DNA of 64,000 nt from a virus. Of the stretch, positions 18,787-47,747 are shown one piece after another (the first letter of the stretch is position 1; every line of letters begins with the position of its first letter). The notes under the pieces are model-generated. The model searched no databases, was not told where the DNA came from, and saw only the letters and a list, made by a program, of their open reading frames with translations. Where the stretch lies: IMG/VR virus record IMGVR_UViG_3300025648_000012, positions 32,001 to 96,000 of that record. One strand, written 5' to 3'. Both the position numbers and the translations under genes were made by a program.

Positions 18787-18995
18787 CAATCTGTGAGGCA
18801 GTACCACATTCTTTTAGAGTATGCCCCTTAGCACCAAATCGTTGCTTGTGGCAACATAGAATTACTAATGAGTGCCAACATTTACCAGTTGAAACTGCAA
18901 ACGAATACGCTGAGTTAGTTGGCCTACCTTATTTATCGGGAGAGCAATATGAACAGCTAAAACAAAACTTAAGAACAGCATTGGAAGAAAGGTAA
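18741..18995 (+). CDS. Hypothetical Cys-containing protein
   Basis: 84 aa; begins inside a 12-bp repeat. Confidence 0.55.
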   Translation: MQTKVQTKVQTKVQTTICEAVPHSFRVCPLAPNRCLWQHRITNECQHLPVETANEYAELVGLPYLSGEQYEQLKQNLRTALEER

Positions 18996-39923: not shown

Positions 39924-40832
39924 ATGGTACAGGGACTAACATTTGAGGAAGCTCAAGTAGTGTTTGATTACCTTTTTGGTAAAATAAACAAATGGGAAGT
40001 AAGAAAACTCCTACCTTCACATAAAGAAGTTTTTGCTAAGGTTAATCCAAACAAAGGGTATTTTTATAAGAATGCCAAGTTGTATCTTTGGGCATTAGCT
40101 AATTTTAGAAAGGGGGGTCAACAGCATGGGCCAGGTAAATTCCTAATTCAAAAAGAAGATGTTGCAGATTTACGGGCTATTGTACTCCCGTCAATTAGCA
40201 CCAAGTACCCGGTTTTAACTCTAAAGCAGTTTGAATTACTTGCTGATTCTTGCCTAATGAGTATTCTATCCTCTCAATGGATAGGAAAATTTATAAGCAA
40301 AAAATTGGTGTTTCTAAACAGGTTTGGACTTTCAAGAAACGATATAGAGTCCTCTTTAAGGGAAGCAGGATTTATTGCACTTTGTAAAAAGTATCCTTAC
40401 TACGAGTCTGAACTTCATGCAGTAAACGTGTGCAAAGCTGCTATGCACAATCATGCTTATAGATTGGTTGAGTACAACACTTGTCCTAAACGTGCAGTAC
40501 AAACAGTTTCCATGGACGCATTTTTAGGTACTTTTAGTCGAGTATCAACTCCAGCTACAGTAGAAACAGATGAGTGGGTAAATAAGCAAAGTCTGCTTTC
40601 TATTGAAAGTAAGCTTTCTCCAAGAGGAAAGCTATTTTTAGATTTAGCACAGGGAACATATAACGAAGAATTTTCTGCTATACTTGGAAAATCAAACTCA
40701 GATTTAGCTTTAGAGATGCCGTACGATGAATACCTAAGTAGAGTTAGAGCATTTGTGAGAGTATCATATTCTCAACAAGTCAAGTTCTTTAATGAAGTAA
40801 AAAGTAAGATGGTTTACAAAACCTGTAAATAA
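39924..40832 (+). CDS. Divergent sigma70-family-like transcription factor
   Basis: Region-2-like DIESSLREAGFIAL...AMHNHAYR, then VSMDA, then region-4-like KLSPRGKLFLDLAQGTYNEEFSAILGKS. Confidence 0.5.
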   Translation: MVQGLTFEEAQVVFDYLFGKINKWEVRKLLPSHKEVFAKVNPNKGYFYKNAKLYLWALANFRKGGQQHGPGKFLIQKEDVADLRAIVLPSISTKYPVLTLKQFELLADSCLMSILSSQWIGKFISKKLVFLNRFGLSRNDIESSLREAGFIALCKKYPYYESELHAVNVCKAAMHNHAYRLVEYNTCPKRAVQTVSMDAFLGTFSRVSTPATVETDEWVNKQSLLSIESKLSPRGKLFLDLAQGTYNEEFSAILGKSNSDLALEMPYDEYLSRVRAFVRVSYSQQVKFFNEVKSKMVYKTCK

Positions 40833-42933: not shown

Positions 42934-43422
42934 ATGACTACCAAAAAATCAATCTCTACAGCTGAATTTGTAGAGGAGTGTAAAAAACAAAATAAAATGG
43001 AGAATTTAGATTACTCCAAGGTAGTCTACTCCACTCAAAAAGAAAAAGTAACCGCAACCTGTGCAATACATGGTGATTTTTCGCGTACAGCTATGAGCTT
43101 GAAAAAAGCGCTAATACCCTGTATTAAGTGCAGAAAAACTTTTCAAGTAAGCAAAAAAGAAAAGGAACCACCTAAAGTTTCGATTCCTCAATACCAGAGA
43201 ATTGGTGTTTATTCTAAAGGGTCACAAACGCCAATGTTCGTTGTAACTATGGCAGATAATTCAGAAGAAAAAGTAATGAACTTTGTCAAACTTTATGGTA
43301 TTGATTTGCCTAAATCTTTTGAGATTAGGCCAGTGACTTCTGCGACAGATTATGTCAGTTGGAGTTTTGGGAGAGCAAAATTGCATAGTAAAAACTTTGT
43401 TGAAGAGGAGTTGGCTGCTTAA
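42934..43422 (+). CDS. Protein with N-terminal DUF723-like Zn-binding repeat
   Basis: EFVEECK...LDYSKVVY...KVTATCAIHGDF...CIKC. Confidence 0.6.
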   Translation: MTTKKSISTAEFVEECKKQNKMENLDYSKVVYSTQKEKVTATCAIHGDFSRTAMSLKKALIPCIKCRKTFQVSKKEKEPPKVSIPQYQRIGVYSKGSQTPMFVVTMADNSEEKVMNFVKLYGIDLPKSFEIRPVTSATDYVSWSFGRAKLHSKNFVEEELAA

Positions 43423-43426
43423 TTTT

Positions 43427-43503
43427 GTGCCCGTAGCTCAACTGGATAGAGCACCAGCCTTCTAAGCTGGGGGTCGCTGGTTCGAGTCCAGCCGGGCACG
43501 CCA
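43427..43503 (+). tRNA. tRNA-Arg(UCU)
   Basis: Acceptor GTGCCCG/CGGGCAC, D arm GCTC/GAGC, anticodon arm CCAGC-CTTCTAA-GCTGG, T loop TTCGAGT, encoded CCA. Confidence 0.97.
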
Positions 43504-43521: not shown

Positions 43522-43725
43522 ATGCTAAAGCCAACGGGACAACTAAGGTACTTGAAGCAGTTTCTTCCTATATTTCGTGCGGAAGAACGTTCATCTTTGA
43601 ATACTAATCTTGGTTATACAAAAATAACTTTACAGCGTCTTTGGGTAGATGAACAAAATCCAGAAGGGAGTGAGTGGAGACCAGATGAGGATATTCCAAT
43701 AGTTTACGAGGTAACATTATGCTAA
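43522..43725 (+). CDS. Small hypothetical protein (paralog of the next gene)
   Basis: MLKPT..LR...LQ..W...EWR shared with the 43719 gene. Confidence 0.6.
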   Translation: MLKPTGQLRYLKQFLPIFRAEERSSLNTNLGYTKITLQRLWVDEQNPEGSEWRPDEDIPIVYEVTLC

Positions 43726-43928
43726 AACCAACACATAGATTGAGGTTTATTCGGAGGATAGGTACTGAGCAAATCATACAGCCTAATGATAAAAACTATA
43801 GGTTGTTTGCAGGAACTGCTGTTTCTCCATGTGTTAAACTTCAACAATACTGGGAATGCCCACAAAATAGCAAACCTCCAGAATGGAGAGATGCTTATTA
43901 TATAGTTTTAGATACAGTACGTCTGTAA
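43719..43928 (+). CDS. Small hypothetical protein (paralog of the previous gene)
   Basis: Same shared motifs. Confidence 0.6.
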   Translation: MLKPTHRLRFIRRIGTEQIIQPNDKNYRLFAGTAVSPCVKLQQYWECPQNSKPPEWRDAYYIVLDTVRL

Positions 43929-43934
43929 ATAATA

Positions 43935-44196
43935 GGTTAGAACAAGCGCGCTCCCGCGCGAGTAAGGAGCTCAGTACTGTTTCCCCTTTACAGTACAAAA
44001 CCTTTCGGTAGATTGAGCATAACCGTCCCAATTTGGGTGCAAGGGAAAGTTGAGTGGCAACTCAGCCCCAGCTGCAGGGGATATAACTATCCGGTGGAAA
44101 CAAGCTACGAGTGCGCTCGTAGGGCTATGCCACAGCCTTTACATGACCGCCGGAGGGCTTGTAGGTAGATAGCCCTTAAATGCGTGCAGCACCCAA
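43935..44196 (+). ncRNA. Unassigned structured GC-rich RNA
   Basis: Many nested helices, a long-range closing stem ttgggtgc/gcacccaa and crossing helices; strand inferred from context. Confidence 0.6.
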
Positions 44197-44221
44197 CCTT
44201 TTAACACATAAGGAGTGTAGA

Positions 44222-44803
44222 ATGGAAAAAATAACTGCAACGAAAGTAATTGAACCCTTAGAAACGAATTTGGTTGAGTACGTTAAAGAGCATCTTTCTA
44301 CTAAAATTAGTAAATCTAAACTCGATCCTATCGAAACGTATGAAGGAGGAGACGTTTATAATTTTGGGGATGATGAAACTGGTTACTATGTTCTTGTAGT
44401 AAGAAATGAAGTTGTATACTTTGTTAGGTACAAAAAAATAAAACACAATCAGATGCACTTTGGTAGGCAAGTGTTGGTTTATAGTAATCGAGTTGTACCA
44501 GAAACAGCCGAATTTGCTAGGTACATATTTTTTCAAAAGCTATTGCCTAGATACCACTCACTAATTGCTGACCAATTGCAAACACCTGACGGTAAACGTT
44601 TTTGGCAATATTCTATGATTTATTCTTTTGGAAAACATTATGTATATTTTTTGGATAGAAGGTCTTCTCCAAATAGGTTAATTCAGTTGCATAACCGATC
44701 TGACATGAATTTATATGGAGATCAACTTTGGGGTACTACAGAAGGTCACAAAAGAACTTTTGCTGTAATTAGTGATAGAGCATTAAAATTAGCAACAAAG
44801 TAA
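44222..44803 (+). CDS. Hypothetical protein
   Basis: ATG 44222 with RBS aaggag (the track start at 44180 lies inside the RNA structure). Confidence 0.7.
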   Translation: MEKITATKVIEPLETNLVEYVKEHLSTKISKSKLDPIETYEGGDVYNFGDDETGYYVLVVRNEVVYFVRYKKIKHNQMHFGRQVLVYSNRVVPETAEFARYIFFQKLLPRYHSLIADQLQTPDGKRFWQYSMIYSFGKHYVYFLDRRSSPNRLIQLHNRSDMNLYGDQLWGTTEGHKRTFAVISDRALKLATK

Positions 44804-44921
44804 TTAGTGCAGTACACAAAAGGCCTTTGCTACGGGCCAATAATTTTAGCCGCCTAAAAGCTGCCATTGCGAAAAGATGGCCCCGTATAGCAGTAAGCGG
44901 GATTAAAAGAAGGAATTTTTC

Positions 44922-47747
44922 ATGCCTCTAGCTCCCTTTCTTCCAAAAGACTGGAACGACCATTCTCAGCGACTCTTAGTAATTTTGGAAAATACTCCAG
45001 AAGAGTGTGCTATTCAAAATACTCTAAATACTAAAATAGTAATGAACCCTGCAATGTACCCAAAGCATGGTTTACCTGTTGCTATATTTCCTTTTTCTGA
45101 TAGGGATTACCACAATCTAAAGCCCAATGCAAAGGGTATTTTGCTTTCTAAATACCGCGCTAAATGCCTAGCTTTCATTGAAAAGTATAAACCAACACAC
45201 GTTATTTTTTCAGGCAATGATAATCCTTGGGACATTCCTTTTAACCAGTTGGGTTGGGTTTATAAGAAAAATGGAGTTAGAGTAACCACTTCTTTAGATT
45301 TAGATAAAATCTACAGCTACAAAGGAGGGGTTTATGCCAACGCAGTTGGTCTTTTTATAGACCACCTTAATACTCTACTTGGAACTTCTAATGGACGCCC
45401 CCTACAGAACATTGAACCATCTCCAGTTTACGTAGATACGTTAGAAAAATTTGAAAAACTTTTAGCTAAACTGGAAGAAAGTAGAGTGATAGCAATAGAT
45501 ACAGAAACAGCTGGATTATCTGTACACACCAACAATGCACTCTATACAGTTCAGTTTAGTGTTTCTTCAACTAAAGCATATATCGTTCCAGTAGACCATC
45601 CTACAACTCCCTTTTCTAAAGAAGACCTTAAGATAGTAAAACAAAAACTACGAAAGTTCTTTGCGAGTACTGGTAAAGAGCTTGTATTCTTTAATGGAAA
45701 ATTTGATTTGAGAATACTCCGTGTCTTTCTAAAAGTGGAGTTCATAAGGCATAAAATATGGGAAATTAGGTCTGGAGAACATGCTTTAGACGAAGGCGTA
45801 CAGCTATTAGTAAATTTTAAGCCTAAAGGAGCAAGTAAACTTTATAACCCAGGTAATTTAGCTAACACAGTATCGAGGTATGGTAACGATTTTTATTACG
45901 GATCAGCTTTCGGAAAGGATGACCGGTCTACAATAGGTCACATTGCTTGTGATAATCCAGATTTCTTAAAGTATGCAGCAATGGATGTTCAAACAATTTT
46001 TGGTGTTAGAGACTGCCAGCTACAAAGAGCAGAAAAACAAGGTAGGTTAAATTCTTTTAGAAAACACATGCTTTACCAGATGGGACCTACTGAACACCAA
46101 CTATCACTGCTTGAGCAAAATGGGTCTTTAGTTTCAATTCCAAAAATTAAAGAATTAGTCTCTAAAAAATCTCCTATAATTAAAATTATTGAGGAATCAA
46201 CTTTAGAACTTTCAATGTACCCCCAAGTAATACAGGCTAACAAGTTAGTTGCTCAAAAATCATCAACTGCAAACCCCTTATTTGGTACACCCTGGGTGTT
46301 TTCTTGGACAAAAGGAGACCATCTAAAAACATTATTTTTTGAAGTCTTGCAGCTTGCACCCTTATCAAAGACTAAGTCGGGTAAAGACGCTATTGACAAA
46401 GAATTTATTGCGTTTTACAAAGATAGGTCTTTTATTGTAGATTTGTATGGTCAATTAGCAGAAGCTAGAACAGTTGCAAGAACTTTCCTAACAGGAGTTT
46501 TGCAGAGGTTAGAATTATCAGAAGATAAAGATTCAAAAATGCGTTCAAGATTTGATGTATTCAATGTTGATACAGGACGCTTAGGTTCTGCTGACCCAAA
46601 CCAGCAGAATTTTCCTTCTCGTGGTAAGTTAGCAAAACTGGTTAAGTCTATATTCATAAGTGCTGAATCTCATATTTTAATCAAGTACGATTATTCAGCA
46701 CATGAAGTTAGATGCTGGGCAATAGCAGCAAACGACGAGGTACTCGGCTCCGTATTTGAAACAGGAAGACAGCTCCGTAGAAAGTTAATTAAAAATCCAA
46801 CAGAAGAAATACGGCAGGAAATAAAGAAAAAAGGTGACTTGCATATTCTTAATGTAAAGAGGTTTTTCAATAAATGGGTGGAAAAATCTGATCCATTGCG
46901 AGAAGCAGTTAAATCGGTTATATTTGGAGCAATCTACTTAATGACAGCAAGAACTCTTGGTAGAAATACGAAAAAACCTGAGATTGTTGAAATACAAGCG
47001 TTAATGCGAAAAGCTCGAGATGAAAAACAACCCATTGAACCGTACATGGAAAGACTTGAGGAGCTTTTAGAAGAGGATAGAACCGAGTATGCAAATAACA
47101 TTCTTAATAAACTATTTTCTGCATTTAAGAAATCTTCAAAATGGTTAGATTCCGTTACAAGAAGTGCCGCAAAAAAGCAACAAGCAGAGTCTCCAATAGG
47201 CCGAGTTAGGCATCTTTGGGCTACTCTTTTTGAAGATAAAAGTCTAACTGCTAAACAAATAAGAAGAGGAGCAAATGCTCCAATTCAGGGTTTTGGCTCT
47301 GAAATAGGTGTAGTTTCTTCCTACTTAATATGCAATACGTGGAATAAACTCTTTCCCAAAGTAAATGTTGAGTTTAGCAGAATAATCCACGATGCGTCTT
47401 ATTTCCATGTTCCAATAGAATACTCTGTAGAGTTTATTCATGTTATGTCATACATGGCAACTACTGGAGTTGCAGATTACTATGAAAGGCATTTTGGACT
47501 AAAAATGGTAGTCAATCCTGAGATAGAAATTGAGCTTGGAGTTTCCGATGACAAGTTTGAAAAATGGAATTGGGAACTGCCGTCTTTGGTTTCTTTAATG
47601 GAAAAAACACTAAAAGACAAGGGGGAAACCCACAGTCTAAAGCACATATTTAGATCTTGGAAGAATAACTCAATGAAAAATTTTCCACTATTGAATGTAG
47701 AGTTATCCAAGGAATTGAGAACTGAATACCAAAAACTTAGAGCATAA
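44922..47747 (+). CDS. polA: Family A DNA polymerase with 3'-5' exonuclease
   Basis: Exo DTET, FNGKFD, YAAMD; TGRLGSADPNQQN; motif A DYSAHEVR; motif B REAVKSVIFGAIY; motif C IIHDA. Confidence 0.95.
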   Translation: MPLAPFLPKDWNDHSQRLLVILENTPEECAIQNTLNTKIVMNPAMYPKHGLPVAIFPFSDRDYHNLKPNAKGILLSKYRAKCLAFIEKYKPTHVIFSGNDNPWDIPFNQLGWVYKKNGVRVTTSLDLDKIYSYKGGVYANAVGLFIDHLNTLLGTSNGRPLQNIEPSPVYVDTLEKFEKLLAKLEESRVIAIDTETAGLSVHTNNALYTVQFSVSSTKAYIVPVDHPTTPFSKEDLKIVKQKLRKFFASTGKELVFFNGKFDLRILRVFLKVEFIRHKIWEIRSGEHALDEGVQLLVNFKPKGASKLYNPGNLANTVSRYGNDFYYGSAFGKDDRSTIGHIACDNPDFLKYAAMDVQTIFGVRDCQLQRAEKQGRLNSFRKHMLYQMGPTEHQLSLLEQNGSLVSIPKIKELVSKKSPIIKIIEESTLELSMYPQVIQANKLVAQKSSTANPLFGTPWVFSWTKGDHLKTLFFEVLQLAPLSKTKSGKDAIDKEFIAFYKDRSFIVDLYGQLAEARTVARTFLTGVLQRLELSEDKDSKMRSRFDVFNVDTGRLGSADPNQQNFPSRGKLAKLVKSIFISAESHILIKYDYSAHEVRCWAIAANDEVLGSVFETGRQLRRKLIKNPTEEIRQEIKKKGDLHILNVKRFFNKWVEKSDPLREAVKSVIFGAIYLMTARTLGRNTKKPEIVEIQALMRKARDEKQPIEPYMERLEELLEEDRTEYANNILNKLFSAFKKSSKWLDSVTRSAAKKQQAESPIGRVRHLWATLFEDKSLTAKQIRRGANAPIQGFGSEIGVVSSYLICNTWNKLFPKVNVEFSRIIHDASYFHVPIEYSVEFIHVMSYMATTGVADYYERHFGLKMVVNPEIEIELGVSDDKFEKWNWELPSLVSLMEKTLKDKGETHSLKHIFRSWKNNSMKNFPLLNVELSKELRTEYQKLRA

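Follow-up and report, generated by a model that had tools for sequence, protein, structure and literature searches.

The closest described counterparts of the element reported here are the pseudoknot leader of bacteriophage T4 gene 32 and the translational operator of T4 gene 43, which span 30–100 nt, each with a known protein partner, and are conserved in T4 relatives. A further point of comparison is offered by T4 rnaC and rnaD (the 'species 1 and 2' RNAs), which are orphan stable RNAs beside tRNA genes and for which we know of no Rfam model. We analyzed a candidate RNA from an uncultured lake phage that, by analogy, would work most like the structured leaders of phage replication genes.

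The window, a stretch of 64,000 nucleotides, comprises bases 32001–96000 of an IMG/VR phage record of 142,721 bp (142.7 kb) that has direct terminal repeats and an overall GC content of 38%. The runs that contain the stretch are freshwater DNA metagenomes from 2017 in all 24 of 24 cases, kept as contigs. Judged by its family A DNA polymerase (PolA), the closest cultured relatives of the phage are Achromobacter phage Motura, Ralstonia phage phiRSL1 and the Burkholderia phages BCSR5 and BcepSaruman/BcepSauron, at 35–38% identity. The best match of this polymerase in a collection of 5.8 billion proteins is only 42% identical, and the phage lineage is therefore an isolated one. The features around the element, in window coordinates, are as follows.

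42934–43422, + strand: HNH endonuclease-like ORF of 162 aa (PHROG E 3e-05)
43427–43503, + strand: tRNA-Arg (TCT) gene (Rfam 70.7 bits; ARAGORN), the sole tRNA of the genome, 430 nt upstream of the element
43522–43725, + strand: small ORF of 67 aa
43719–43928, + strand: small ORF of 69 aa, its TAA stop overlapped by the CTGTAAATA motif
43923–43931, + strand: promoter-like motif CTGTAAATA, core GTAAATA
43929–44221, within a + strand gene block: ORF-free gap of ~290 nt containing the candidate RNA
44210–44224, + strand: Shine-Dalgarno sequence AAGGAG (44210–44215) and ATG (44222) of the first gene 3′ of the element
44222–44803, + strand: ORF of 193 aa, phrog_1349 (PHROG E 1.5e-09)
44922–47747, + strand: PolA with a 3′-5′ exonuclease domain (Pfam PF00476 3.6e-34, PF01612 2e-12)

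Like the leaders of T4 genes 32 and 43, the element would be a folded RNA that separates replication genes from a phage promoter on their strand, with no terminator in the interval. Unlike them, it is ~260 nt long, has no homolog in our searches and no known partner, and leaves the ribosome binding site outside its predicted fold. Its likeness to T4 rnaC and rnaD is one of position, as a GC-rich non-coding stretch on the strand of a phage tRNA-Arg gene and a few hundred nucleotides 3′ of it, whereas here the tRNA and the element are separated by a pair of small ORFs as well as a separate promoter-like motif.

The neighborhood shows several further traits. The HNH-like ORF ends 4 nt before the tRNA-Arg gene and has the look of a free-standing homing nuclease, as in T4 tRNA regions. 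The tandem ORFs at 43522–43725 and 43719–43928 are paralogs with 33% identity, a shared MLKPT start and a common PEW/SEWR segment, and they are unrelated to the small ORFs that lie 5′ of ORF 44222 homologs elsewhere. Outside the window, genome positions 140663–142721 (L070 5664–7722) hold a 1.43-kb ORF-free gap of 43.5% GC; an Rfam search of this second gap gave no match at E ≤ 0.1, and perfect tandem repeats with units of 16 and 20 nt occur 3′ of it, at the genome end.

Composition and predicted fold of the gap

A preliminary description, made from the sequence alone, had claimed an intergenic GC island in an AT-rich genome, and the island is there, with 54% GC compared with 38% for the genome. 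Locally, the GC fraction is 0.535 in 44000–44199 versus about 0.36 in the surroundings, and the genome has 17 ORF-free gaps of 120 nt or more, of which the one at 43929–44221 is the only GC-rich one (0.541), the 16 others ranging from 0.28 to 0.44. A protein-coding role for the stretch is ruled out by its short frames, which lack Pfam or tblastx matches: across six frames the stop-to-stop ORFs are all ≤75 aa with no Pfam match at E ≤ 1, and tblastx finds no translated similarity to the relatives or to the phage's own genome. The element is unchanged in near-identical strains from four other lake samples, whose divergence is too small to be informative. In contigs from two other lake samples, five substitutions cluster within 11 nt at 43902–43912, in the 3′ end of the 69-aa ORF; the next 600 nt of these contigs, the element included, are identical.

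The candidate RNA comprises two domains, the second of which has competing long-range pairings.

43935–44024, + strand: domain 1, with hairpins gcgcg-ctcc-cgcgc, gtactgt-(9 nt)-acagtac and acc-tttc-ggt within gctca/tgagc
44033–44196, + strand: domain 2, closed by ttgggtgc/gcacccaa, with hairpins gttgagt-ggca-actcagc and ctacgag-tgcg-ctcgtag
Within domain 2, + strand: mutually exclusive long-range pairings, agggctat/atagccct versus tccggtgg/ccgccgga plus acaagc/gcttgt

Thirteen helices had been proposed, and all 13 are present at their positions. Eleven of them are perfect Watson–Crick pairings, while a single G-U pair occurs on the + strand in each of gttgagt/actcagc and tccggtgg/ccgccgga; on the − strand, it would be an A-C mismatch. 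The minimum free energy (MFE) z-score is −2.59 on the + strand and −1.65 on the − strand. An RNA from the + strand is favored because the two G-U pairs work only on that strand and because of this difference in z-score.

The same helices bear on a DNA-level explanation, according to which the segment would be a replication origin or a protein-binding region, where an R-loop primer could arise at a GC-rich segment that follows a promoter. Nearly all of the helices are Watson–Crick and would form equally in DNA, and the segment lies directly upstream of replication genes, behind a promoter-like motif. However, we find no iterons, direct repeats or AT-rich unwinding element in it and no G-rich strand bias (skew 0.05–0.08), and the cumulative GC skew has no turning point here, its minimum being at the divergent gene junction near 47–49 kb of the genome. 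We therefore consider a DNA-level role very improbable.

We calculated base-pair probabilities by nested-only folding, a model in which pseudoknots cannot be represented. The local hairpins of the proposed architecture proved robust, with pair probabilities of 0.99 for gtactgt, 0.99 for gttgagt, 0.90 for acc/ggt and 0.77 for gcgcg; the gctca/tgagc helix reaches 0.46 and the domain 2 closure ttgggtgc/gcacccaa 0.52. Other parts of that architecture did not hold up in the folding, namely the domain 1 closure ggtta/taacc (0.05), the helix aaggg/ccctt (0.00) and the two crossing helices tccggtgg/ccgccgga (0.05) and acaagc/gcttgt (0.00). The 8-bp pairing agggctat/atagccct, which had been listed as an alternative, is indeed possible, but it is not the lesser option, as the folding favors it over the crossing helices with a pair probability of 0.83. 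The predicted ensemble is diffuse, the frequency of the MFE structure being 0.0005.

Pseudoknots in the element are accordingly a possibility and not an observation of the folding, and low scores in a nested model do not disprove them. Linkers of 2 nt on either side connect the crossing helices and would set them side by side, not stacked, an unusual geometry. It is a long shot, in our estimate, that the element is a new lineage-specific pseudoknotted RNA that is expressed from a phage-specific promoter and controls or cooperates with the replication module, its crossing helices forming a side-by-side, double-crossover-like core absent from catalogued RNAs. Under that pseudoknotted-RNA reading, the phage would be related to the phiRSL1/Motura/BcepSaruman jumbo phages as a deep-branching freshwater lineage.

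To place the fold against chance, the element was compared with dinucleotide shuffles and with its own genome. It contains 19 perfect stems of at least 6 bp versus 8.5 ± 3.6 in the shuffles (9 of 1000 shuffles reach 19) and 7 of at least 7 bp versus 2.1 (15 of 1000); its two 8-bp stems, versus 0.56 in the shuffles (136 of 1000), are not significant alone. A repeat run gave an MFE z-score of −2.95, a value reached by 3 of 59 random genome windows (~5%), whose z-scores have a mean of −0.50 and a standard deviation of 1.27. When MFE is regressed on GC across genome-wide windows, the region ranks 105th of 1583. The surplus of self-complementarity is genuine, if modest, and a stability in about the top 5% of the genome is suggestive, not decisive.

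These comparisons are where an explanation without function enters, in which the gap is a GC-rich scrap that came to lie behind the promoter and ahead of ORF 44222, for instance the scar of a mobile element or a piece of a dead gene, and that folds well only through its GC content. The unremarkable GC-adjusted rank and the ~5% of random windows that do equally well against their shuffles agree with it, as does the free-standing HNH gene (42934–43422) that the region also holds, adjoining the tRNA. Yet GC alone does not explain why perfect stems outnumber those of the dinucleotide shuffles (p ~0.01), and no source for such a fragment is detectable by Pfam, by tblastx or by word matches beyond chance in GTDB, IMG/VR and JGI. 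Moreover, 290 nt of useless DNA are rarely kept in phage genomes, and this is the sole GC-rich gap of its kind. We rate this explanation as rather unlikely; the relatives described below bear on it as well.

Relatives, known RNA families and the gene downstream

The preliminary description could assign no family to the RNA and proposed an Rfam scan; the scan agrees, with no match to the element. Against the 4227 models of Rfam 15, the sole hit passing the gathering threshold in the whole window is the tRNA-Arg, and at E ≤ 10 the element has 0 matches in searches of 701 nt and of 301 nt, the latter with lax filters. No tRNA, tmRNA or tRNA-like domain is found in it by ARAGORN or by the tRNA model at E ≤ 10. 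A 'distant' blastn search with 1.5 kb of sequence across 50,697 phage records matched the tRNA and nothing else.

Word scans of larger collections were equally negative. The exact 16-mer TCCGGTGGAAACAAGC has 54 matches in IMG/VR, none of which extends past 16–22 nt, and nhmmer finds nothing; we rejected them as homologs and ascribe them to chance or an unrelated gene. Three other IMG/VR word scans and a scan of GTDB genomes returned 0 matches each. A scan of JGI metagenomes returned four, on contigs of 67–73% GC, with alignments of 19–26 nt and no match to our covariance model R1, and these too were rejected as chance. Model R1, built from a single sequence and a hand-made nested structure, is a weak model that distant homologs could escape; outside the element, it has 0 matches in the phage's own genome, in all fetched loci and in 13 related phage records (2 PolA-related IMG/VR records, 7 with ORF 44222 homologs, one of them 97% complete, and 4 complete cultured relatives). 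Within the genome, the element has a 16-nt identity with genome positions 18925–18940 (E 0.007), where the hairpin context is not shared. An 18-mer at 44090–44107 of the window is common to ~40 IMG/VR contigs (L004–L057) of 30–60 kb, mostly from sample 3300045988; they have no similarity past 18–22 nt, and the 18-mer presumably belongs to a gene conserved within an abundant phage group that is unrelated.

A ribozyme had been put forward as one identity of the RNA and finds no backing here. No ribozyme model matches at E ≤ 10, self-cleaving classes included (HDV-like, hammerhead, twister, pistol and hatchet), and no gene is split around the element. By inspection, the strand order tccggtgg, acaagc, hairpin, ccgccgga, gcttgt resembles the P1-P2-P3-P1′-P2′ order of an HDV-like double pseudoknot. 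Unlike in HDV, the P3-like hairpin is followed by another hairpin and 24 nt before the P1′ strand is reached, P4 and J4/2 are missing, the P1′ and P2′ strands being just 2 nt apart, and no HDV-family model matches. A group I intron was rejected because RF00028 does not match at E ≤ 10 and because only 2 nt lie between the crossing 5′ strands, without a P4-P6 between P3 and P7. An intron of any kind was rejected on the grounds that the downstream ORF is complete and the upstream 69-aa ORF is a separate paralog with its own stop codon.

The gene that follows the element offers a test of conserved position. ORF 44222 has about 34–35 homologs, the best 55% identical, with 97–100% coverage. The alignment of these homologs begins at residue 1 of the 193-aa form, and the start codon is therefore at 44222; an ATG at 44180 was rejected as the start for the same reason. 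The protein (phrog_1349, function unknown) gives an AF2 model with a pLDDT of 90.1, for which Foldseek returns only weak GNAT-acetyltransferase-like matches (E 1.7e-3 to 2.5e-2, TM 0.3–0.4). In L058–L061 and L063–L069, another ORF ends 0–48 nt before the homolog of gene 44222, leaving no long leader, and the closest homolog, P0002, is preceded by a gap of 157 nt, as judged from gene coordinates only. In one of these loci (L066 6579–8169, IMGVR_UViG_3300047552_000676), 1.6 kb 3′ of the ORF 44222 homolog contain no + strand ORF of at least 60 aa.

A riboswitch-like leader of gene 44222 had also been suggested. The element shares with phage riboswitches and cis-regulatory motifs (c-di-GMP, glutamine, manA, wcaG) a position in a 5′ UTR and GC-rich helices in an AT-rich genome. 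Unlike these motifs, it has no Rfam match at E ≤ 10, no expression platform and no conservation upstream of homologous genes. No terminator-like site occurs on the + strand between 43935 and 44222, and the Shine-Dalgarno sequence of ORF 44222 is predicted to lie in the loop of a small hairpin, unpaired with the element and not sequestered by it. Since homologs of gene 44222 occur without such a leader, a riboswitch that serves this gene is unsupported. The functionless-scrap explanation gains from the same loci, as it expects no relatives and no conserved position, and ORF 44222 homologs are found without the element.

The GTAAATA motif and a proposed transcript through the element

The CTGTAAATA motif had been reported just 5′ of the region, and it is present at 43923–43931 on the + strand. 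The window contains 11 copies on the + strand, spread over 17402–61399, and 0 on the − strand, versus 1.3 expected; genome-wide, there are 19 on the + strand versus 1 on the − strand. An A-rich triplet precedes the motif. In four cultured relatives, we counted the core GTAAATA on both strands with the reversed pattern as control, and found + and − copies of 37 and 5 in Motura versus 1 and 6 for the reversed word, of 15 and 20 versus 0 and 4 in phiRSL1, of 20 and 18 versus 1 and 1 in BCSR5, and of 17 and 13 versus 2 and 2 in BcepSaruman. The motif follows the gene-strand blocks in all four, its strand switching in blocks along the genome in phiRSL1, and it is confined to the coding strand in every relative locus examined, L076–L079 included.

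GTAAATA is a coding-strand-specific signal common to the lake phage and cultured jumbo phages, and this observation is new here; a literature search on the motif and on promoters of phiRSL1-like phages found nothing relevant. Promoters of the T4-late type consist of a single element, TATAAATA. By analogy, GTAAATA is a candidate clade-wide phage promoter with a T4-late-like, single −10-type element. We infer the promoter role of the motif, and this promoter context is the main new evidence for the element.

The spacing between motif and gene sets this locus apart. Three further copies within the window (27833, 29200 and 40823) stand clearly ahead of a start codon, with motif-to-start distances of 39–75 nt, compared with 290 nt for the copy at 43923. 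In three relatives (L002, L003 and BCSR5), GTAAATA ends 21–28 nt before the PolA start, as would be expected of a phage-specific promoter; this placement of the motif directly before PolA also counts in favor of the scrap explanation. In the lake phage, there is no further GTAAATA between 43925 and the PolA start at 44922. A terminator-like hairpin at 44822–44838, with a GGCC stem and a weak T run, lies between ORF 44222 and PolA and may attenuate read-through.

The transcript's 3′ course also bears on a stand-alone role, in which a stable non-coding RNA, possibly pseudoknotted, is freed from the transcript and acts in trans as an anti-defense decoy or as a regulator that pairs with ribosome binding sites. 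Such an RNA would have its own promoter-like motif, the vicinity of the sole tRNA and very stable local hairpins to its credit, and the pyrimidine loop (43978–43990) of the hairpin at 43974–43996 is complementary over 13 nt to the ribosome binding site at 25934–25946 of the ORF at 25950. That complementarity, however, has an E-value of 0.46 and is probably due to chance; no terminator or other recognizable 3′ end precedes ORF 44222; no homologs are found; and 2-nt linkers are sterically awkward for a classical H-type pseudoknot. We judge a trans-acting RNA of this kind to be improbable.

A proposed leader of the replication-gene transcript

The reading that we prefer is that the element is a transcribed, folded and lineage-specific 5′ leader of the ORF 44222–PolA transcript, a proposal whose chances we would put at about even. 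It is based on the stretch being ORF-free and GC-rich, on the excess of stems, on the context of the promoter motif and on the better fold of the + strand. The preliminary description had allowed for either a leader or a stand-alone RNA; this much is reasonable, because the non-coding element begins right after a promoter-like motif, while the riboswitch and ribozyme forms of the idea are unsupported.

According to the leader model, the CTGTAAATA motif at 43923 would act as a promoter, possibly read by a phage sigma factor, for which 39924–40832 is the candidate gene. If the motif is a T4-type −10 element, transcription would start at about 43937–43940, at the first helix of the element. One transcript would then run through the element into ORF 44222 and probably PolA, a single-transcript reading that is the simplest one, as no GTAAATA comes before PolA and no terminator separates the element from ORF 44222. 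The RNA would fold into several stable hairpins and, on the model of T4 genes 32 and 43, the leader may stabilize the replication-gene mRNA or provide a binding platform for a phage regulator. As another option, a stable RNA may be cut out of the ORF 44222–PolA transcript.

Several observations count against the leader reading. No homolog was found, ~5% of random windows fold as well, and the GC-adjusted rank is 105th of 1583. In addition, the modeled fold is a diffuse ensemble with competing long-range helices that does not sequester the Shine-Dalgarno sequence, and it suggests no regulatory logic. Weighing both sides, we regard the element as a plausible, unproven orphan RNA that is a member of no catalogued family.

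On present evidence, the element is a singleton, and its value is that of a candidate for metatranscriptome mapping or in vitro probing. If real, it would be one more uncatalogued structured RNA in large phages, linked to the replication-gene transcript. The GTAAATA motif, a by-product of the analysis, is perhaps more useful than the element itself, as it provides a candidate promoter, open to testing, for an entire clade of phages, the cultured Burkholderiales jumbo phages included.
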